A DNA stretch of 18,805 nucleotides from a virus, in UHGV virus genome UHGV-0261633; one strand, written 5' to 3'. Below, one piece after another: positions 1,728-8,407 of this stretch. How positions within the stretch are numbered: position 1 is the first letter of the stretch; the number at the start of each line of letters is the position of its first letter. A program made the position numbers and the translations under genes. The notes beneath the pieces are model-generated. The model saw only the letters and a program-made list of their open reading frames with translations. It had not been told where the DNA came from and did no database searches.

Positions 1728-1803
1728 TGGAGAATCCGAAGGGACTCGAACCCTTATAAACCTGTTTTGCAGACAGGCACATAGCCATTTCTGTCACGGA
1801 TTC
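1728..1803 (-). tRNA. tRNA-Cys (anticodon GCA)
   Basis: Hand fold: encoded CCA (tgg on + at 1728-1730), acceptor gaatccg/cggattc perfect, T-arm aaggg-actcgaa-ccctt, anticodon loop in tRNA sense CUGCAAA. Confidence 0.8.
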
Positions 1804-1807
1804 AAAT

Positions 1808-1900
1808 TGGAGGAAGATACCAGACTTGAACTGGTACACCGATTTCTCAGCTACTGGCAGTTTAGCAAACTGCTCCCTTACCTTTTAGGGTTAATCTTCC
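1808..1900 (-). tRNA. tRNA-Ser (anticodon GCU), type II
   Basis: Encoded CCA, acceptor ggaagat/atcttcc perfect, T-arm accag-acttgaa-ctggt, long variable arm, anticodon stem gcagt/actgc with loop UUGCUAA. Confidence 0.8.
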
Positions 1901-1902
1901 AT

Positions 1903-2637
1903 TTATTTCTGTAATGCGTTCTTCATTTCTGGTGTTGCAATAGTGTCAATTACACCAGTTTTACAAGCATCATCAAACCAGTCTGGTAAGATACCTGCTA
2001 AGAACCCATTGATATTCGTTTTAAGGTACTCTGCAATAAGGGCAGCTTCTTCTTCAATCATCTGCACAACTTCATCTGCATAAGCTGTAATCTTCGAGAT
2101 ACCTTCATTAATCTTACTAACAGCTTGGTTAGCTAAATCAGAAATAGTATCAAGACCTTTGTCAATAGCGTCTTGTAAGTCACTTAATACATCATTAACA
2201 CCGTCTAGTGCACTGTTAATCATATCAATAGCTTTTTGACCATACTCTGTAGCAACACCCATAATACCACTAAATGGTGTACAGCCAACTTGTTCACCTG
2301 CTGCACCCATAACATTAGAATAACCTTTTGCTACCTGCATACGTGATGAAAACTCATCAATGGACTTTTGACCGTAATCTGTCAGTGTTTTGGTAGTTGA
2401 TGTAGTGCTTGTCAGACTCGTGGTAAAGCTGTTAAGCAGAACTGTTGTAAGTCCAGCAGCAACAAGCTTATCCTTTACTGTAGGGTCTGATACAGAACTA
2501 ATAGAGCTTACAAGTGATGTAGAGGCAGCTACGGTTCCACCGAGAACTGCTGCACCAGTAATAAGGGGGTTAGAAAACCCTTTACCAGTTTTTAAGAGAT
2601 TAAAAATCTCCTTACCTTGTTCTGTCATCTCTTTCAT
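1903..2637 (-). CDS. hypothetical Ser/Thr-rich protein (~244 aa) embedded in the tRNA array
   Basis: ORF track 1903..2700, but the first 21 codons overlap tRNA-Phe and begin at a non-ATG codon; internal ATG at 2635-2637 has an AAGGTG RBS. Low-complexity S/T/A-rich N-terminal half. Confidence 0.55.
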   Translation of the reverse strand: MKEMTEQGKEIFNLLKTGKGFSNPLITGAAVLGGTVAASTSLVSSISSVSDPTVKDKLVAAGLTTVLLNSFTTSLTSTTSTTKTLTDYGQKSIDEFSSRMQVAKGYSNVMGAAGEQVGCTPFSGIMGVATEYGQKAIDMINSALDGVNDVLSDLQDAIDKGLDTISDLANQAVSKINEGISKITAYADEVVQMIEEEAALIAEYLKTNINGFLAGILPDWFDDACKTGVIDTIATPEMKNALQK

Positions 2638-2653
2638 TAAGCACCTTTGAAAT

Positions 2654-2730
2654 TGGTAGTCCAGTGGGATTTGAACCCTCTTCTCATGTTTTTCAGACAC
2701 GCGCTTTAACCATATAAGCTACTTGGACTA
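2654..2730 (-). tRNA. tRNA-Phe (anticodon GAA)
   Basis: Acceptor tagtcca/tggacta perfect, T-loop atttgaa (one mismatch in T-stem), anticodon loop CUGAAAA; 3' CCA encoding ambiguous. Confidence 0.7.
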
Positions 2731-2735
2731 TAAAT

Positions 2736-2811
2736 TGGGGTGACCTACGGGATTTGAACCCGTATAGACCATGTTCACAGCATGGGTCATTACCATTTAT
2801 GATAAGGCCAC
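2736..2811 (-). tRNA. tRNA-His (anticodon GUG)
   Basis: Encoded CCA, acceptor with one G-U, T-arm acggg-atttgaa-cccgt, anticodon stem ccatg/catgg with loop CUGUGAA. Confidence 0.8.
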
Positions 2812-2842
2812 ATTTAAGGACTCTCGTAAGAATCCTTAGAAG

Positions 2843-2918
2843 TGGCAGCGGCATAAGGATTTGAACCTTAATAAGACAGCTTCAGAGACTGCTGCATTGC
2901 CAGTTATGCTATACCGCT
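2843..2918 (-). tRNA. tRNA-Gln (anticodon CUG)
   Basis: Encoded CCA, T-arm taagg-atttgaa-cctta, D-arm gcat-tgccagtt-atgc, anticodon loop CUCUGAA. Confidence 0.75.
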
Positions 2919-2923
2919 AAATT

Positions 2924-3002
2924 TGGTACTCCATATCGGATTCGAACCGATACATAACACAGATTTTAAGTCTGGCCTCTCTGCCAATTGGAGTAATGGA
3001 GC
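2924..3002 (-). tRNA. tRNA with leucine anticodon UAA but type-I length (putative tRNA-Leu)
   Basis: Encoded CCA, discriminator A, acceptor actccat/atggagc (terminal G-U), T-arm atcgg-attcgaa-ccgat, anticodon loop CUUAAAA; about 7-nt variable loop, no long arm. Confidence 0.55.
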
Positions 3003-3004
3003 AT

Positions 3005-3080
3005 TGGCGGGGGATGTTGGAATTGAACCAACTTCTTCGATTTCAAAGACCGAGGTTTTAACCTTGTAAACTAATCCCCT
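3005..3080 (-). tRNA. tRNA-Gln (anticodon UUG)
   Basis: Encoded CCA, T-arm gttgg-aattgaa-ccaac, anticodon loop CUUUGAA. Confidence 0.75.
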
Positions 3081-3088
3081 TTAAATCT

Positions 3089-3646
3089 TTACTTTCTCAG
3101 TGGATGAATAAAGAATGCCAACATAACTCTTTCCCTTGAGAATGCTCTTTCTTCTGGGACAACACTTTTTAGCTTCCATCCAACATAAATTCTCCAGTAG
3201 AATTGTTTACCAAAGACTTTAATTGATGGGATAAAAGCGAATAATCCCCAAGCATTACTGTTCCACATTAGGAGATAACCTGTCTGATTATCTTCAGGGT
3301 CAGAACTTACGTTGATATTGCCTTTCCACTTAGTAACATCTTTTACATCTCTTCCTAACACATGGTAAGAGAAGTTATAAGCTTTGTTTCTCCAGAGCCA
3401 TCCAACTCTCTGCAAATAGACACCAAGCTTACCAATCTTTCTAATCTTAGCCCATCTTTTAACGTGACCTTCATCACCATCAATCGGGTTGTCATATGTC
3501 TCCATCCATCTGAATCCAAAAGGTAAGTGTCCTTTCTTCTCACTGTAAAATGGAACTACAAAAGGTGCTAAGATAACTGCTAAGATTGCTGCCAATGGTT
3601 CTAGCAAAGCTAAGAAAATCCATGAAGCATACTTCAAGTATCTCAT
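3089..3646 (-). CDS. hypothetical membrane protein (185 aa) embedded in the tRNA array
   Basis: ORF track; AGAGG RBS about 9 nt upstream; hydrophobic N-terminal segment IFLALLEPLAAILAVILAPFVVPF, Trp-rich remainder. Confidence 0.6.
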   Translation of the reverse strand: MRYLKYASWIFLALLEPLAAILAVILAPFVVPFYSEKKGHLPFGFRWMETYDNPIDGDEGHVKRWAKIRKIGKLGVYLQRVGWLWRNKAYNFSYHVLGRDVKDVTKWKGNINVSSDPEDNQTGYLLMWNSNAWGLFAFIPSIKVFGKQFYWRIYVGWKLKSVVPEERAFSRERVMLAFFIHPLRK

Positions 3647-3665
3647 TTAAATAGCCTCTTTAAAT

Positions 3666-3741
3666 TGGCGCAGGATAAGGGATTCGAACCCCTATTAACA
3701 GCTTCGTAGACTGTTGCTCTATCCATTTGAACTAATCCTGC
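3666..3741 (-). tRNA. tRNA-Arg (anticodon ACG)
   Basis: Encoded CCA, acceptor gcaggat/atcctgc perfect, T-arm aaggg-attcgaa-cccct, anticodon loop CUACGAA. Confidence 0.8.
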
Positions 3742-3855
3742 TTACCTACAAGAACACCATACAGTTTTTCACAAGAGTTGTTTTTACGCCTGTTTTTGAA
3801 TGACGCTATAAACTTTTTTGCAATTGATTTATTACTCATAGTGTTCTCCTAAAAT

Positions 3856-3933
3856 TGGTGTTCCAAGACGGATTCGAACCGTCACTAGTACAAGGTTTGA
3901 GCTTGCATCCTCTGCCAATTGGGATACTGGAAC
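3856..3933 (-). tRNA. tRNA with leucine anticodon CAA but type-I length (putative tRNA-Leu)
   Basis: Reverse complement GUUCCAG-UA-UCC..GGA-U-GCAAG-CUCAAAC-CUUGU-ACUAGU-GACGG-UUCGAAU-CCGUC-UUGGAAC-A-CCA; 6-nt variable loop, discriminator A. Confidence 0.55.
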
Positions 3934-3934
3934 A

Positions 3935-4009
3935 TGGTACTCACTAAAGGACTTGAACCTTTTTCTTCATCTTGTAAGGGTGATGTTTTACCATATAAAC
4001 TAAGCGAGT
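3935..4009 (-). tRNA. tRNA-Val (anticodon UAC)
   Basis: Encoded CCA, T-arm aaagg-acttgaa-ccttt, anticodon loop CUUACAA. Confidence 0.75.
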
Positions 4010-4011
4010 AT

Positions 4012-4102
4012 GAAAGAGGTCTGAAGTTGTGCCGCTAACTCAACTCCGTGGGATTTGTTACGGTCTTCAGTTGACTCAAAGCGGTCTTTCACTTGACCTC
4101 TA
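4012..4102 (-). ncRNA. tRNA-sized structured element without a canonical T-loop (possible tRNA-like RNA or degenerate tRNA)
   Basis: Outer stem agaggt (4015-4020) / acctct (4096-4101), inner stem ctgaag (4021-4026) / cttcag (4065-4070), internal hairpin ccgt..acgg (4046-4063); no GTTCGAAUC motif in either orientation. Strand not determined from sequence. Confidence 0.3.
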
Positions 4103-4105
4103 AAT

Positions 4106-4181
4106 TGGTGCTCCCACAAGGATTCGAACCCTGATAAGTTACTTACAAGGCAACCGTAATAGCCAATTATACGATAGGAGC
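4106..4181 (-). tRNA. tRNA-Thr (anticodon UGU)
   Basis: Reverse complement GCUCCUA-UC-GUAU-AAUUGGCUA-UUAC-G-GUUGC-CUUGUAA-GUAAC-..-CAGGG-UUCGAAU-CCUUG-UGGGAGC-A-CCA. Confidence 0.8.
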
Positions 4182-4188
4182 ATTAATT

Positions 4189-4263
4189 TGGAGCATCCAG
4201 AGGGAATCGAACCCTCAACCTCAGTTTGGAAGACTGTAATTTTCCCGTTTAAACTATGGATGC
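4189..4263 (-). tRNA. tRNA-Gly (anticodon UCC)
   Basis: Encoded CCA, acceptor gcatcca/tggatgc perfect, T-arm gaggg-aatcgaa-ccctc, anticodon loop CUUCCAA. Confidence 0.8.
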
Positions 4264-4269
4264 ACTAAT

Positions 4270-4345
4270 TGGTGGAGTCACCGAGAATTGAACTCGGTTC
4301 CCAAGTTTGCAAAACTCGAATTTTAACCATATAAACTATGACCCC
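4270..4345 (-). tRNA. tRNA-Ala (anticodon UGC)
   Basis: Encoded CCA, T-arm ccgag-aattgaa-ctcgg, anticodon loop UUUGCAA. Confidence 0.8.
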
Positions 4346-4351
4346 ATTGTT

Positions 4352-4427
4352 TGGTACAGGTGGAGGGAATTGAACCCATCGTCTTACTGATTAAGAGTCA
4401 GCCGCATAACCATTTTGCTACACCTGC
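4352..4427 (-). tRNA. tRNA-Lys (anticodon CUU)
   Basis: Encoded CCA, acceptor with terminal G-U, T-loop aattgaa (T-stem only 3 clean pairs), anticodon loop CUCUUAA; paralogous in outline to the tRNA at 5656-5731. Confidence 0.7.
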
Positions 4428-4434
4428 ATTAATT

Positions 4435-4512
4435 TGGTAGGAGACAAGGGATTCGAACCCTCAAACACCAACTTCTAAGGATGGTAGGTTTACCAATTAC
4501 CGTCAATCTCCC
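4435..4512 (-). tRNA. tRNA with leucine anticodon UAG but type-I length (putative tRNA-Leu)
   Basis: Encoded CCA, discriminator A, acceptor 7 pairs with two G-U, T-arm aaggg-attcgaa-ccctc, anticodon stem CCAUC/GUUGG (one mismatch) with loop CUUAGAA; D-arm poorly paired. Confidence 0.5.
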
Positions 4513-4593
4513 ATTAAATCTTTTTAGAGAACTTCTAAGAACCTAAGCAACAAGGTTCCACAACAAGCTGTAATAACCTTAGAAGCCCTCTAA

Positions 4594-4613
4594 AAAGACC
4601 TAAATAGGTCTTT
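4594..4613. other. AT-rich hairpin in array spacer (weak terminator-like)
   Basis: aaagacc-taaata-ggtcttt flanked by A/T runs; orientation and function unclear. Confidence 0.25.
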
Positions 4614-4767
4614 GCATAGTCTTGTTTAATCCGGTGACTAGAACCTTTGGAGAGCTTGATATTATCTCTTCTCCGTGACACCTACTAGGTGCTTTGACAG
4701 TGTACGACAATACACGAGGGATACCAAAGCAACATCCAAATGAAGCTTGGCTTTAAATCTTATTAGG

Positions 4768-4855
4768 CGGTAAGTAAAGGAGTCGAACCCTCACCGTATC
4801 TCTACAGTGGCAACTGTTTTCAAGACAGTTTGGCTACCATTAGCCGCTACCTACC
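4768..4855 (-). tRNA. tRNA-Ser (anticodon UGA), type II
   Basis: T-arm aaagg-agtcgaa-ccctc, ~20-nt variable region, anticodon stem actgt/acagt with loop CUUGAAA, acceptor ggtaagt/acctacc with one G-U; CCA apparently not encoded. Confidence 0.65.
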
Positions 4856-4868
4856 CCTAATAAGACTT

Positions 4869-4951
4869 TGGCATGGGACGGAGGAGTTGAACCCCTTTGA
4901 AACGGTTTTGGAGGCCGTTGCTCATGCCTTAGAGTCTTAACATCGTCCCAT
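4869..4951 (-). tRNA. tRNA-Trp (anticodon CCA)
   Basis: Encoded CCA, acceptor atgggac/gtcccat perfect, T-arm ggagg-agttgaa-cccct, anticodon loop CUCCAAA; D-region longer than canonical. Confidence 0.6.
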
Positions 4952-5093
4952 ATTATAATTCGAAGCTTACCCTGTTATCTCAACACTGTCAAGCTTCTTC
5001 TCAGATTATTTACATGTTCTGGAAAACATGAGATACAGACCACCTCCCTACAGGAAGACCCGCTAAGGCCGTCTAAGTAATCTGCTAACTATT

Positions 5094-5175
5094 TGGTCGA
5101 GGCGGCAGGACTCGAACCCGCATACTCCACTTACTCGGTTAACGGCGGTTTAGAAGACCGCTGAGATACGCCCCG
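5094..5175 (-). tRNA. tRNA-Arg-like (anticodon UCU) with non-canonical body
   Basis: Encoded CCA, acceptor cgaggcg/cgccccg, T-arm gcagg-actcgaa-cccgc, perfect anticodon arm GCGGU-CUUCUAA-ACCGC; but only 7 nt between acceptor and anticodon stem (no room for a D-arm) and 23 nt between anticodon and T arms. Confidence 0.45.
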
Positions 5176-5423
5176 TAATTATCTTTAAAGACTCTCTTAG
5201 AAAGCCCTTAAAGATGCCCACCTTATTAATCATACCGTGGGCGAGTACGCCAAATTCTTTAATGAGGGATTGGAAGACCTCACTGGTGTTTAGCCTATCA
5301 AGCTACTGCCAGAAAAACATTGTCGTTTGCATTTATTTTAAATTTGCAAAATAGACGCTACGCAACGAAAACTAAGGTTACTATAAAGTAGTCACATCTC
5401 AATGTCAACAACTTTATTGAAAT

Positions 5424-5498
5424 TGGTTGTAGGTGAGGGTATCGAACCCTCTTCTAACGGTTATCAGCCGTTTGCATTACCATTTATGCTAACCCACA
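5424..5498 (-). tRNA. tRNA-Ile (anticodon GAU)
   Basis: Encoded CCA, T-arm gaggg-tatcgaa-ccctc, D-arm gcat-taccattt-atgc, anticodon stem aacgg/ccgtt with loop CUGAUAA. Confidence 0.8.
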
Positions 5499-5500
5499 AT

Positions 5501-5577
5501 TGGAGGTTCAGATGGGAATCGAACCCACATTCATAGGGCTTATGAAACCCCTGCATTACCTTATCTGCGACTGAACC
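5501..5577 (-). tRNA. tRNA-Met (anticodon CAU), elongator-like acceptor
   Basis: Encoded CCA, acceptor ggttcag/ctgaacc perfect, T-arm atggg-aatcgaa-cccac, anticodon stem GGGGU/GCCCU with loop UUCAUAA. Confidence 0.7.
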
Positions 5578-5655
5578 AGAATAAGTACCCTAGTTAGAGA
5601 AACTGTTGAGTGGGTGTTTCCAGCCGCGCAGGTGTTTCTCAGTTAAGGGTGAATT

Positions 5656-5731
5656 TGGTAGAAGTGGAGGGATTCGAACCCATCGCCTGTCAGATTAAAA
5701 GTCTGCCGCATCACCATTCTGCTACACTTCC
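5656..5731 (-). tRNA. tRNA-Lys (anticodon UUU)
   Basis: Encoded CCA, acceptor with terminal G-U, T-loop attcgaa, anticodon loop CUUUUAA. Confidence 0.7.
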
Positions 5732-5736
5732 ATTAA

Positions 5737-5876
5737 ATTATCTTTGTAGATAAGCTACCCAGACTTGCTTAAGGTCTGTAGCGATGTGCCTTTTGGGTTT
5801 AAATCTAGAATTTACCCTTCACCCTTTGTGGTCGCATACTCACAGGTAAGCTTAATAACTTATCTACAAAGATAAT
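5737..5876. repeat. 18-bp perfect inverted repeat flanking a 104-bp ORF-free segment
   Basis: attatctttgtagataag (5737-5754) is the exact reverse complement of cttatctacaaagataat (5859-5876). Confidence 0.85.
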
Positions 5877-5920
5877 TACCAGACCGTTGTTTATCATCTT
5901 AAGTGCTACCATTACACCAA

Positions 5921-5975
5921 CTCGACATCTGCCGAGTGAAGGAATCGAACCTTCGCCTTTTCTTTACCGGAGAAA
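5921..5975 (-). other. tRNA fragment-like element (canonical T-arm plus one hairpin, no matching acceptor 5' strand)
   Basis: T-arm gaagg-aatcgaa-ccttc (5938-5954) and hairpin tttct-ttaccgg-agaaa (5958-5974); no complementary acceptor strand found downstream. Confidence 0.3.
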
Positions 5976-5990
5976 TAGATTGTTTAAGTT

Positions 5991-6018
5991 TTGCTGTAAA
6001 CGGTCTTCTGTAAATTTG
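5991..6018. repeat. 28-bp exact direct repeat, copy 1 (ttgctgtaaacggtcttctgtaaatttg)
   Basis: Identical 28-mer at 6471-6498; degenerate copies at about 6078-6097 and 6638-6658. Confidence 0.85.
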
Positions 6019-6130
6019 TTGAGCCAGACCAAGTTTTAAATTTTCAAAATTAAATTGGCTTGAAATTTCATACATTCTTGCTGTATTTGGTCTTCTGCTC
6101 CTTTAAAGAATACTCGTAAGAACTCTTTAA

Positions 6131-6153
6131 GGGAGGGGCTAAATAGCCCTCTC
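6131..6153. other. GC-rich hairpin gggaggggct-aaat-agccctctc
   Basis: Shares the 15-mer ggggctaaatagccc with a hairpin at 18364-18378. Confidence 0.5.
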
Positions 6154-6158
6154 AAAAT

Positions 6159-6235
6159 TGGCGGCTACGATGAGACTTGAACTCACATCATCTCCCGTGA
6201 CAGGGGAGTATTTTCTCCAGTTAAACTACATAGCC
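6159..6235 (-). tRNA. tRNA-Asp (anticodon GUC)
   Basis: Encoded CCA, T-arm atgag-acttgaa-ctcac, anticodon stem ctccc/gggag perfect with loop CUGUCAC. Confidence 0.8.
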
Positions 6236-6240
6236 TTTAT

Positions 6241-6328
6241 TGGTGTGCCGTGTAGGAGTCGAACCTACCGAGTCTCAATGACAAGGGATTTACAGTCCCC
6301 ACCGCTACCATCTACGGGATAACGACAC
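6241..6328 (-). tRNA. tRNA-Tyr (anticodon GUA), type II
   Basis: Encoded CCA, T-arm gtagg-agtcgaa-cctac, ~15-nt variable region, anticodon loop CUGUAAA. Confidence 0.75.
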
Positions 6329-6336
6329 ATTTAATT

Positions 6337-6413
6337 TGGCGGTTAGTCAGGGATTCGAACCCTGTGCCATTCGCTTAACAGGCGACCGCACATACCTTAT
6401 GTGCTTCCTAACC
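6337..6413 (-). tRNA. tRNA-Asn (anticodon GUU)
   Basis: Encoded CCA, T-arm caggg-attcgaa-ccctg, D-arm gcac-ataccttat-gtgc, anticodon loop CUGUUAA. Confidence 0.75.
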
Positions 6414-6470
6414 ATGTTTAGTATTACCAGACCGTATCTTTCAATTTTTCCGCTAAAAATTTAATAAGTA

Positions 6471-6498
6471 TTGCTGTAAACGGTCTTCTGTAAATTTG
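6471..6498. repeat. 28-bp exact direct repeat, copy 2, abutting the 3' end of a tRNA-Met gene
   Basis: Identical to 5991-6018. Confidence 0.85.
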
Positions 6499-6573
6499 GA
6501 GGCGGGTGCAGGAGTCGAACCTGCCGATACCATGCTAATGAGACATGTGAGACGCCCTTTCTCTATACCCGCA
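6497..6573 (-). tRNA. tRNA-Met (anticodon CAU), possibly initiator-type or tRNA-Ile2
   Basis: Encoded CCA, T-arm gcagg-agtcgaa-cctgc perfect, anticodon stem CAUGU/GCAUG with loop CUCAUUA, D-arm gaga-cgccctt-tctc; position 1-72 appears unpaired. Confidence 0.65.
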
Positions 6574-6664
6574 ATTCTTAATGACCAGACCAAATCTCTT
6601 CTTTGTCCGATTTACCTTCAGATGAATAAGATTAAGTTTGCTGTAATTGGTCTTCTGTCAAAAC

Positions 6665-6742
6665 TGGCGTTCCAGAAGGGATTTGAACCCTCAAATATCC
6701 ACTTTGAAAGAGTGGTGACTTTACCATTTTGTCTACTGGAAC
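6665..6742 (-). tRNA. tRNA-Glu (anticodon UUC)
   Basis: Encoded CCA, acceptor gttccag/ctggaac perfect, T-arm aaggg-atttgaa-ccctc, anticodon stem ccact/agtgg with loop CUUUCAA. Confidence 0.8.
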
Positions 6743-6749
6743 ATTAATT

Positions 6750-6826
6750 TGGTCTCTGTTGGAGGACTTGAACCTCCGGCCTTACCGCCCCAAACGGAAC
6801 GCTCTACCAAGCTGAGCTAAACAGAG
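6750..6826 (-). tRNA. tRNA-Pro (anticodon UGG)
   Basis: Encoded CCA, acceptor ctctgtt/aacagag perfect, T-arm ggagg-acttgaa-cctcc, D-arm gctc-taccaagct-gagc, anticodon loop UUUGGGG. Confidence 0.8.
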
Positions 6827-6991: not shown

Positions 6992-8407
6992 TTACCAGAT
7001 ATAACGGTCAATCATTACTGCTTTGAGCATTACGCTGATTGGGTCAAACTTCTCACCACTAAGCAGAGCTTTTAAAGTGGCTGGAGAGAAACCAGATACC
7101 ATTGCTACACCGTTATCCTTAACAGATACTTCGCAAGTACCATTACGGTTTGCTAAGTACCAGAATACCAGTTGTGGCATCTCATATCCAGCTTTTTTGT
7201 ACTTACTCTGAATTGCTTCAAAGTTTGTACGACCGTTAGCTCCATCAACCTGATTGAACTCCATATCGGAGAAGATGATAAGCTTACTTGGCATATCTTT
7301 CTGAGTCAAGTTGTTTCTTTTACCTGTTTCAAGAATGCGGTCAAAAGCTGCTTGTAAGTTAGTTGAGCCATATTCAACGTGTCGCATCACCTGACGATGA
7401 CGGTTTCGTAAATCACCACTCAGTTCGATGAAGTGAGGGTTTGTCGAATAAACCATCAACTCATTCTTAAAGCAACCTGTATTGCGTTCTGCTACATACA
7501 AGGCAAGTGATACACCAATATCCAGAGCAGTAATGGAGCCAAAATTCACCCAAGACATTGAACTTGATACATCAGACATACACAAGATGTTTTCACCTTC
7601 TGCCATCCAGTTTGGTAGTGCTTTCCACTGCTCATTAGCAACATCTGCATTACCATACTTGACAGATTTAATCACATCGTATGGGTAAACAGCACCAGCG
7701 TTAATCTTAGTCTCACCTTTTGATAAGGACTCGATGTAAGCTTTGTAACGCTCTCCATCTTTACGGTTAAACAGTTTTTGGTAACGTGCAGCAGCAAGTG
7801 AAGGAATCTTACTGTAGTCAATCTTACCAAACTCATTAGCAGAGATTTTTTGCTCAACTGTATCAGATAGTGCAGACAACAGTGTGCGGTACTCTTTCTC
7901 ACTCAAGTTGGCAAACTTGCAGAAACGTTTTACAAACTGCTTATGACGTGGTTTGACTCGTGGTAACCACTTAGCCGCCAAACCTGCTGTTGCAGGGTCT
8001 AGTAATGCTGCTTCTAAATGTTTGAAGGCATCTGTCTCGAAACGAGTACCTACGAAGATTTTGAAGTCATCAAAACGACCAAGTTCTGCAATCTTATCCA
8101 TAATGCGAAGAACCTGTGTAGGCTCTAAAACTTTATCTTCAATTGCTTGAAGCAAAACAGTTCTGAAGGCTTTACGCTCACCCATACCTTCTCGTACATC
8201 TCGCATATGCAGTAAAATACGAACTGCAACATCAACATCCTCACGCAAAGCTTTGTAGAACAGGTCTGGTAAGATTTCTACATTGCTACGGCTTGAACCA
8301 GCAGCTTTGTAAAAGTCTACAAGAGCAGACATTGATGAAGTATGGTTTACAGCACCATTTTCAGTTCGACCTGCATGAAGGTGCGCATGTTTAAATAATT
8401 CGCTCAT
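6992..8407 (-). CDS. von Willebrand factor A (vWA/MIDAS) domain protein, 471 aa, with ~270-aa helical N-terminal domain
   Basis: ORF track; C-terminal half has a DxSxS MIDAS motif (ILCMSDVSSSMS) and a vWA-like hhhhSD motif (KLIIFSDMEFNQ); GAGAG RBS. Domain call is from motif recognition only. Confidence 0.8.
   Translation of the reverse strand: MSELFKHAHLHAGRTENGAVNHTSSMSALVDFYKAAGSSRSNVEILPDLFYKALREDVDVAVRILLHMRDVREGMGERKAFRTVLLQAIEDKVLEPTQVLRIMDKIAELGRFDDFKIFVGTRFETDAFKHLEAALLDPATAGLAAKWLPRVKPRHKQFVKRFCKFANLSEKEYRTLLSALSDTVEQKISANEFGKIDYSKIPSLAAARYQKLFNRKDGERYKAYIESLSKGETKINAGAVYPYDVIKSVKYGNADVANEQWKALPNWMAEGENILCMSDVSSSMSWVNFGSITALDIGVSLALYVAERNTGCFKNELMVYSTNPHFIELSGDLRNRHRQVMRHVEYGSTNLQAAFDRILETGKRNNLTQKDMPSKLIIFSDMEFNQVDGANGRTNFEAIQSKYKKAGYEMPQLVFWYLANRNGTCEVSVKDNGVAMVSGFSPATLKALLSGEKFDPISVMLKAVMIDRYIW

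Follow-up and report, generated by a model that had tools for sequence, protein, structure and literature searches.

Three minus-strand genes in UHGV virus genome UHGV-0261633, of which a stretch of 18,805 nucleotides (nt) was analysed (the window), carry the leucine anticodons UAA, CAA and UAG on type I tRNA scaffolds, whose variable loop is short, and probably represent genuine leucine tRNAs of a widespread type I family, which the host's leucyl-tRNA synthetase (LeuRS) would charge through a retained set of identity elements. ARAGORN and Rfam both recovered the three short-arm genes at the positions given for them in the initial annotation of the window (Table 1). The interpretation draws on the observed structure and conservation of the genes, their membership of the family, their retention of identity elements and their match to phage codon usage.

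All three genes passed the cloverleaf test with the Rfam tRNA model RF00005, scoring above its gathering score of 29 bits, and ARAGORN agreed. Each combines a 7-bp acceptor stem, discriminator A73, an encoded CCA end and the T loop UUCGAAU with a 7-nt anticodon loop (CUUAAAA for UAA, CUCAAAC for CAA and CUUAGAA for UAG), and these features, including the clear T-arms, could be read directly from the sequence as initially described. The long variable arm of canonical bacterial class II tRNA-Leu (>10 nt, forming a stem-loop) is absent from all three, with variable loops of 7 nt in the UAA tRNA (GUUAUGU, ending in U48), 6 nt in the CAA tRNA (ACUAGU, ending in U48, or 5 nt when the anticodon stem is taken to have a sixth pair) and 5 nt in the UAG tRNA (UGUUU); the 6–7 nt first reported holds for the UAA and CAA tRNAs, but not for UAG. 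The D arm is of class II style, with a 3-bp stem in all three and an unpaired C13·A22 in the UAA and CAA tRNAs, which share the D loop AAUUGGCAGA and have the same D arm (CCC-AAUUGGCAGA-GGA in the CAA tRNA), and a GGU/ACC stem with the loop AAUUGGUAA in the UAG tRNA. The combination of a 3-bp D stem, unpaired 13:22 and G18G19 after four nucleotides was found in 88% of the sampled type II tRNA-Leu. The first acceptor pair is G1·U72 in the UAA and UAG tRNAs, and G1-C72 in the CAA tRNA. For the UAG tRNA, the register given by Rfam, which is shifted by 1 nt and has a U discriminator, was rejected, since the arrangement seen in the rest of the array, A73 and then CCA, results from the ARAGORN register only. 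ARAGORN, Rfam and our own covariance model agree on the anticodons, and none gave an alternative fold with another triplet at positions 34–36, which the initial annotation had named as a possible refutation.

The window can be assigned to Felixounavirus (Ounavirinae), since the 2.3 kb around the three genes matched 258 phage records (212 over at least 80% of the query), nearly all of them Felix O1-like myoviruses of Escherichia, Salmonella, Shigella and Citrobacter with 94–99% identity. The three genes are located in an array of 25 tRNA genes, in which ARAGORN detected no further tRNA-Leu, and the only long-arm tRNAs are tRNA-Ser(GCU) (93 nt), tRNA-Ser(UGA) (90 nt) and tRNA-Tyr (88 nt), in line with the initial description of the array. 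In the complete genome of Felix O1, the same 25 tRNAs are present and type II tRNA-Leu is absent throughout, and the idea of a type II tRNA-Leu hidden elsewhere in the genome was rejected on this ground.

Of 273 phage records matched by the UAA gene, 216 have it at 99% identity or more, whereas the surrounding 2.3 kb reached this level in only 4 of 258, and because the gene is so much more conserved than its flanks, the tRNA is likely to be under purifying selection. The UAG tRNA of the window differs from that of Felix O1 (L001:26975-27052) in all but one of the five anticodon-stem pairs (CCAUC/GUUGG with a U·U mismatch in the window, UCUCG/CGAGA in Felix O1), with both bases replaced in a compensatory manner in three of the differing pairs, and in a single base outside this stem, which looks like a swap of the stem rather than stepwise drift. 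Broken stems or neutral change, as used to recognise tRNA pseudogenes, were not found in the three genes. A chimeric tRNA-Leu was present in Salmonella phage FG1m (L006:7999-8076), in which a 5′ part from the CAA gene and a 3′ part from the UAA gene meet within the T arm, leaving the acceptor halves unpaired, with the Arg gene, an open reading frame (ORF), the Gln gene and the UAA gene deleted in between; this shows recombination between paralogous Leu genes.

Colinear short tRNA-Leu genes were also detected in unrelated phages by a distant BLAST search, with UAG, UAA and CAA versions in Lactobacillus phage Bacchae (74–77 nt), UAA and CAA versions in Myxococcus phage Mx1, and UAG, CAA and UAA versions in Aeromonas phage AhSzw-1 (77 nt with CCA). 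A search pattern that set the Leu D loop, a UAA or CAA anticodon loop and the T loop at the distances of a type I tRNA matched at least 120 stretches of the IMG/VR database, and among these listed loci ARAGORN identified at least 220 short tRNA-Leu genes (UAA, CAA and UAG, with a few GAG and AAG), with tRNA-Ser being long in 160 of 163 cases and tRNA-Tyr in 53 of 54 at the same loci. Some of the phage arrays hold both short and long Leu tRNAs (comparison loci L032, L048, L053, L062, L070, L072 and L075). As the pattern was derived from the tRNAs of the window, conservation of the D and T loops in UAA and CAA members is partly by construction; stem covariation, variable-loop length, A73, U48 and the non-selected UAG, GAG, CAG and AAG members are free of this bias. 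The scans of IMG/VR and of bacterial contigs provide lower bounds (at least 120 each) and not frequencies. Using a consensus query, annotated short tRNA-Leu were found in 335 isolate genomes, including Mycobacterium cluster C phages, Erwinia phage phiEa21-4, cyanophage P-RSM6 and phages of Pseudomonas, Streptomyces, Bacillus, Enterococcus, Vibrio and Corynebacterium, so that the isolates with short-arm tRNA-Leu infect several bacterial phyla.

The same pattern matched at least 120 DNA stretches in contigs from one genome per bacterial species, which disproved the idea that the design is specific to phages. Among the bacterial matches listed, 71 loci hold a single type I tRNA-Leu(UAA) or tRNA-Leu(CAA), mostly in Actinomycetota (Corynebacterium, Mycolicibacterium, Nocardia, Actinomyces and Acidimicrobiia) and Planctomycetota, and the sequences of these single genes (within L132–L250, for example L148:4835-4909) track the taxonomy of the host. 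One Nocardia copy is flanked by genes for an esterase, a metallo-beta-lactamase-fold protein and an amino-acid permease, without phage genes. The other bacterial loci listed are tRNA arrays of Chryseobacterium and other Bacteroidota, Clostridiales and Acidobacteriota, and in many of these all Leu anticodons of the array belong to type I scaffolds, with CAG, GAG and AAG also represented, while a few have a long Leu gene as well. The initial statement that bacterial tRNA-Leu is normally type II therefore holds for the E. coli and Salmonella hosts, all Leu tRNAs of which have the long arm, and E. coli leuZ (UAA), leuX (CAA) and leuW (UAG) are 85–87 nt in length with a long variable stem-loop, but is not universal, given the Actinomycetota and the arrays. 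Likewise, its suggestion of an unusually compact tRNA-Leu overstated the rarity of the design, whereas the notion of a genuine tRNA-Leu is favoured by identity elements, family membership and codon usage.

Across 166 non-redundant family members, the stem positions are paired in 89–100%, with three to six pair types at every stem position apart from G53-C61, which is invariant. Of these members, 143 have a variable loop of 5 nt and 18 one of 6 nt, A73 is present in 164, and the last variable-loop base is U (U48) in 160; in their loops of 5–7 nt and Leu anticodons, the tRNAs of the window agree with prokaryotic type I tRNA-Leu. In the 51 bacterial members, the cloverleaf pairs 97.5% of cells, with a covariation score of 1.05, compared to 0.23 for shuffled alignments (0 of 500 reaching 1.05) and at most 0.21 for slid registers. 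The D arm of the type I Leu tRNAs is of the class II Leu style (3-bp stem, unpaired 13:22), and their variable loop is of class I. With R1, a covariance model for which only bacterial type I tRNA-Leu were used, the UAA tRNA (75.4 bits) and the CAA tRNA (74.3 bits) ranked first and second in the window, 17 bits above the best non-Leu tRNA, tRNA-Glu (57.3 bits). The UAG tRNA has A37 where the host tRNA carries G37, as do most type I tRNA-Leu(UAG). For the homologs in Mooglevirus Sf14, the tRNAscan-SE isotype scores place Leu at the top for all three tRNAs, with margins of approximately 13 bits for CAA and 6 bits for UAA (PMC12482277).

The E. coli LeuRS is known to depend on A73, A15-U48, G18G19, A20a and contacts with the D and T loops, and not on the long arm or the anticodon, and arm-less variants of E. 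coli tRNA-Leu remain active (review PMC9976931). We scored the tRNAs for U8-A14, the Levitt pair A15:U48, G18G19, A20a and the T-loop bases U54, U55, C56 and A58, a list taken from PMC9976931 and PMC6614811. All three tRNAs have A73 followed by CCA, the discriminator required by E. coli LeuRS, and the UAA and CAA tRNAs have U8, the series A14 A15 U16 U17 G18 G19 C20 A20a G21 A22, U48 and the T loop UUCGAAU. In the UAG tRNA, U8-A14, A15:U48, G18G19 and A20a are likewise found, provided that an additional nucleotide is accepted ahead of the D stem. The leucine signature A73+U48+A14A15+G18G19-N-A20a-N-A22 was present in 82% of the pattern-selected and 58% of the non-selected type I tRNA-Leu, and in 68% of type II tRNA-Leu, compared to 3% of other tRNAs and 0% of tRNA-Ser and tRNA-Tyr from the same loci.

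The closest described relative is the type I tRNA-Leu(CAA) of Streptomyces coelicolor, whose variable loop (ACAGC) has 5 nt; the LeuRS of this species charges it, and for activity the variable loop must be at least 5 nt long (Fan, Huang, Ji and Wang, NAR 2019; PMC6614811). It shares with the family the Leu anticodon, the 5-nt loop and the canonical D/T elbow, with ACAGU being a recurrent loop in the family. It differs from the phage tRNAs in its location on an actinomycete chromosome, alongside four type II Leu tRNAs, and in having C48 and a LeuRS that ignores A73, whereas the phage tRNAs have U48 (A15:U48) and A73. In the coliphage all three Leu tRNAs are type I and have to function with an enterobacterial LeuRS, unlike in S. 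coelicolor. The same study called bacterial type I tRNA-Leu rare and the Streptomyces LeuRS the only prokaryotic one charging both types, without mention of phages (PMC6614811), and a review describes tRNA-Leu as long-armed everywhere except in animal mitochondria (PMC9976931). The mitochondrial tRNA-Leu resemble the phage tRNAs in being type I with A73 and A14 as determinants (PMC9976931), but are structurally relaxed and served by a dedicated LeuRS, while G18G19 and the UUCGAAU loops of the phage tRNAs are fully canonical. After engineered removal of the long arm, E. coli tRNA-Leu is still leucylated by E. coli LeuRS via A73 and the D/T core (Asahara 1998; Tocchini-Valentini 2000; Larkin 2002, all cited from PMC9976931), with the difference that these variants are laboratory constructs made from the host tRNA. 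A mycobacterial tRNA cluster resembles the phage arrays in containing a short-loop tRNA-Leu(TAG) and an HNH endonuclease gene (Behra et al. 2019, PMC6582537), but is located in a bacterial genome, and the tRNA received a single-sentence mention without analysis of identity or distribution. For M. tuberculosis, long loops are attributed to just three of the five Leu tRNAs (PMC11541572). In Felix O1 and many relatives, existing annotations already list the three phage genes as tRNA-Leu. The design is therefore not wholly undescribed, given the work of Fan et al. 2019 (PMC6614811) and the sentence in Behra et al. 2019 (PMC6582537), and we conclude that the short-arm tRNA-Leu family is widespread and barely described.

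When compared with the phage tRNAs, E. coli leuZ, leuX and leuW have the same anticodons, A73, U8-A14, A15:U48, a 3-bp D stem and a 13:22 mismatch, and the E. coli D loop (AAUUGGUAGA) shares 9 of 10 positions with the phage loops (leuW against each of UAA, CAA and UAG, positions 14–22). The G1·U72 pair of the phage UAA and UAG tRNAs is also found in leuZ. The E. coli anticodon loops UUUAAAA, UUCAAAA and UUUAGGU (G37 in leuW) differ from the phage loops, and a search of 5,426 E. coli genomes detected no similarity to a phage tRNA-Leu gene. Large coliphage tRNA arrays containing a tRNA-Leu are also found in phages T4 and T5, and in this T5 resembles the window, but its tRNA-Leu(UAG) is an 85-nt type II tRNA, unlike the short UAG tRNA described here.

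We propose that the three tRNAs would be transcribed together with the rest of the array, with the CCA end already encoded, and would then be leucylated by the LeuRS of E. coli or Salmonella, which ignores the anticodon and reads A73 and the D/T-loop elbow (U8-A14, A15:U48, G18G19 with U55C56, and A20a). The long arm may be dispensable, because all elements read by LeuRS are retained. On the ribosome, the UAA tRNA would decode UUA and UUG, the CAA tRNA UUG, and the UAG tRNA CUA and other CUN codons, which are frequent in the AT-rich phage genes, whereas the host mostly uses CUG. The Leu codons in long ORFs of Felix O1 are distributed as 26% TTA, 12.5% TTG, 11.5% CTA, 29% CTT and 15% CTG, compared to 10% TTA, 10.5% TTG, 2.4% CTA, 14% CTT and 49% CTG in a 49-kb E. 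coli sample, and the three anticodons therefore serve codons that are commoner in the phage than in the host, with UUA, UUG and CUA together making up about half of the phage Leu codons. In five conserved enzymes (NrdA, NrdB, NrdD, Td and Frd), TTA, TTG and CTA align with Leu of the T5 homologs in 36% and with Leu, Ile, Val, Met or Phe in 70%, versus 51% and 74%, respectively, for CTT, CTC and CTG. Leu was the commonest partner for both groups of codons and no other residue was enriched, which suggests that UUA, UUG and CUA mean leucine in the phage, and hence that mischarged tRNAs would damage the phage proteome.

Several observations weigh against this interpretation. The S. coelicolor type I tRNA-Leu(CAA) transcript was not leucylated by 1 nM E. 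coli LeuRS, an enzyme that according to Fan et al. 2019 "only charges type II" (PMC6614811), and which has a leucine-specific domain favouring large variable loops (PMC6614811) and a C-terminal domain touching nucleotides 47f–47i (PMC6614811; also PMC3561953). This failure is direct negative evidence from the nearest tested relative and is the main uncertainty of our interpretation. With C48 in the Streptomyces tRNA and the E. coli-type A15:U48 in those of the phage, the result may not transfer to the latter. The UAG tRNA is the most irregular of the three, with a 3-nt connector (UGA) instead of 2 nt between acceptor and D stem and a U30·U40 mismatch in the anticodon stem, and its membership of the family appears less secure because its R1 score of 56.4 bits (rank 4) does not exceed that of tRNA-Glu; the margin for Leu is also small for its Sf14 homolog, at 1.7 bits (PMC12482277). 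Single-sequence minimum free energy folds miss parts of the cloverleaf (z = −1.7, −2.0 and −0.8), so that support for the genes comes from covariance models and comparative data and not from thermodynamics.

The E. coli LeuRS result also keeps alive the suggestion of mischarging or decoy tRNAs made in the initial annotation, which otherwise gained no support. The phage tRNAs might be made but be poor substrates or non-substrates of the host LeuRS, acting instead as decoys or sponges for nucleases or defence proteins or as regulators, or needing a different or phage-assisted route of charging, an outcome which we regard as unlikely. The only bacterial type I tRNA-Leu tried with E. coli LeuRS remained uncharged (PMC6614811), and the anticodon loops differ from those of the host isoacceptors by C32 for U32 in all three, A37 for G37 in the UAG tRNA and C38 in the CAA tRNA, changes of a kind associated with resistance to anticodon nucleases (PMC12482277). 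A decoy would, however, need neither the full LeuRS identity set nor an intact acceptor with A73-CCA, nor a set of three anticodons covering just those Leu codons that are enriched in the phage. In Actinomycetota, the same design serves as a normal tRNA-Leu of the chromosome and is charged (PMC6614811), and the annotation of Felix O1 includes neither a phage synthetase nor an obvious helper. If these tRNAs did act by such a route, the many short-arm "tRNA-Leu" genes of phages, in hosts with long-arm versions only, would constitute a class of non-canonical tRNA-like effectors. With a similarly low probability, the genes may be genuine leucine tRNAs in which the arm-less scaffold and altered loops mainly serve to escape host defences that target tRNA-Leu or recognise long-arm tRNAs, with codon supply being secondary; this overlaps with our preferred interpretation and differs only in what selection acts on. 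The scaffold and loops are indeed unlike those of every host tRNA-Leu, a toxin reading the long variable loop is known in MenT3 acting on tRNA-Ser (PMC11541572), and several phage arrays carry short and long Leu tRNAs together, but no defence system known to target tRNA-Leu via its long arm was found, type I tRNA-Leu also occur in bacterial chromosomes where escape is no issue, and the match in codon usage alone accounts for retention.

Charging by another synthetase, by which the genes would act as missense or recoding tRNAs and insert some other residue at Leu codons, is very improbable. Loss of the long arm does take away a mark of class II tRNAs, and the Sf14 UAG homolog scores 65.7 for Ile2 and 63.4 for Lys, close to 67.4 for Leu (PMC12482277). 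The three sequences contain no determinants for another synthetase: G3:U70, as required for alanine, is absent, with 3:70 pairs of U-A, U-A and G-C, and the serine elements G73 and a long arm are lacking, which sets the three apart from mischarging tRNAs with Leu anticodons such as allo-tRNAs or mitochondrial tRNA-Ala(UAG), position 35 is A, and for anticodon-reading enzymes the anticodons signify Leu and no foreign determinant. As UUA, UUG and CUA represent about half of the Leu codons and align mainly with Leu, Ile, Val, Met and Phe, such mischarging would harm the phage. Least probable of all are decaying pseudogenes or prediction artefacts, which would fit with Rfam scores that are among the lower ones in the array (40–47.5 bits), the mismatch and irregular D region of the UAG tRNA and the unconvincing energy-based folds, but not with a UAA gene that is near-invariant in more than 200 phage genomes while its flanks diverge, with the compensatory changes, the encoded CCA ends or the massive covariation within the family; the chimeric Leu gene of FG1m shows by contrast what a true product of decay looks like. 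We therefore continue to favour genuine leucine tRNAs charged by the host LeuRS.

Sequences resembling promoters and a terminator-like hairpin were detected for the array (Table 1), the total number of such consensus matches not being above chance.

Table 1. Positions of the three tRNA-Leu genes, the tRNA array and putative transcription signals in the window
Feature	Position	Strand	Remarks
tRNA-Leu(UAA), type I	2924..3002	minus	ARAGORN, 79 nt including CCA (76 + CCA); Rfam 47.5 bits
tRNA-Leu(CAA), type I	3856..3933	minus	ARAGORN, 78 nt including CCA (75 + CCA); Rfam 43.6 bits
tRNA-Leu(UAG), type I	4435..4512	minus	ARAGORN, 78 nt including CCA (75 + CCA); Rfam 40.0 bits
tRNA array	1728..6826	minus	25 tRNA genes, ARAGORN and Rfam; all amino acids except Trp
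Promoter-like sites with perfect TTGACA	6882-6853; 5408-5380	minus	Consensus match only
Terminator-like hairpin	1557-1540		Consensus match only

Directly upstream of the array, an ORF of 471 amino acids (6992-8407, minus strand) encodes a protein with DUF2828 and DUF7788 domains, annotated as "RNA-binding protein" in Felix O1, and upstream of the tRNA region with the type I Leu genes of Myxococcus phage Mx1, the annotation gives a protein with a TROVE domain. ORFs within the array encode DUF7338 (3089-3646) and DUF7217 (1903-2700) proteins. A weak tRNA-like stretch on the minus strand at 4875-4949 has the anticodon loop CUCCAAA (CCA, corresponding to Trp) and an irregular 3′ end, and scored 23 bits on the tRNA-Sec model, which is below threshold, and 16.4 bits on model R1; it could be a degenerate or non-canonical tRNA-Trp, Trp being the sole amino acid missing from the array. 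The tRNA-Glu(UUC) gene (6665-6742, minus strand) has the same acceptor 5′ strand, GUUCCAG, as tRNA-Leu(CAA) and also a 3-bp D stem, a likeness which may reflect shared ancestry within the array. Several of the viral comparison loci (L005:1120-1194, L067:534-608, L026, L032 and L064) have tRNAs with a CUA anticodon and/or tmRNA genes inside their tRNA arrays, and these CUA-anticodon tRNAs, labelled "Pyl" by ARAGORN, could be amber suppressors.

Between tRNA-Ile and tRNA-Ser(UGA), an odd tRNA-like gene is located on the minus strand at 5094-5175. Its acceptor stem has 7 bp; it also has a T arm, encodes its CCA and forms a hairpin with the loop CUUCUAA (anticodon-like UCU), but lacks a D arm, of which only UCUC is present. 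At the variable position it has a nearly invariant 23-nt segment, which may form a 4-bp arm. Its GC content is 59%, compared to 39% for the window, and it scored 31.7 bits on the Rfam tRNA model and was not called by ARAGORN. The sequence is 83–100% conserved in 263 phage records from unrelated groups, including Felixounavirus, Klebsiella phages Roth49 and KB57, Stephanstirmvirinae and the jumbo Asteriusvirus, with compensatory changes in the acceptor, hairpin and T stems, and is annotated as "tRNA-OTHER" in a few of the records. An alanine identity (G3·U70 and A73) was rejected, as G3·U70 is present in only four of six homologs and the discriminator is G in five of the six.

The value of the three type I tRNA-Leu genes lies in the breadth of their family in phages and in its direct conflict with the published claim on LeuRS specificity. 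Tolerance of arm-less tRNA-Leu by LeuRS may be general, or alternatively phages may carry a large class of tRNA-Leu look-alikes that serve another role, and either outcome bears on the rules of leucine identity, on the portability of tRNA arrays between hosts, and on the design of compact orthogonal or suppressor tRNAs.

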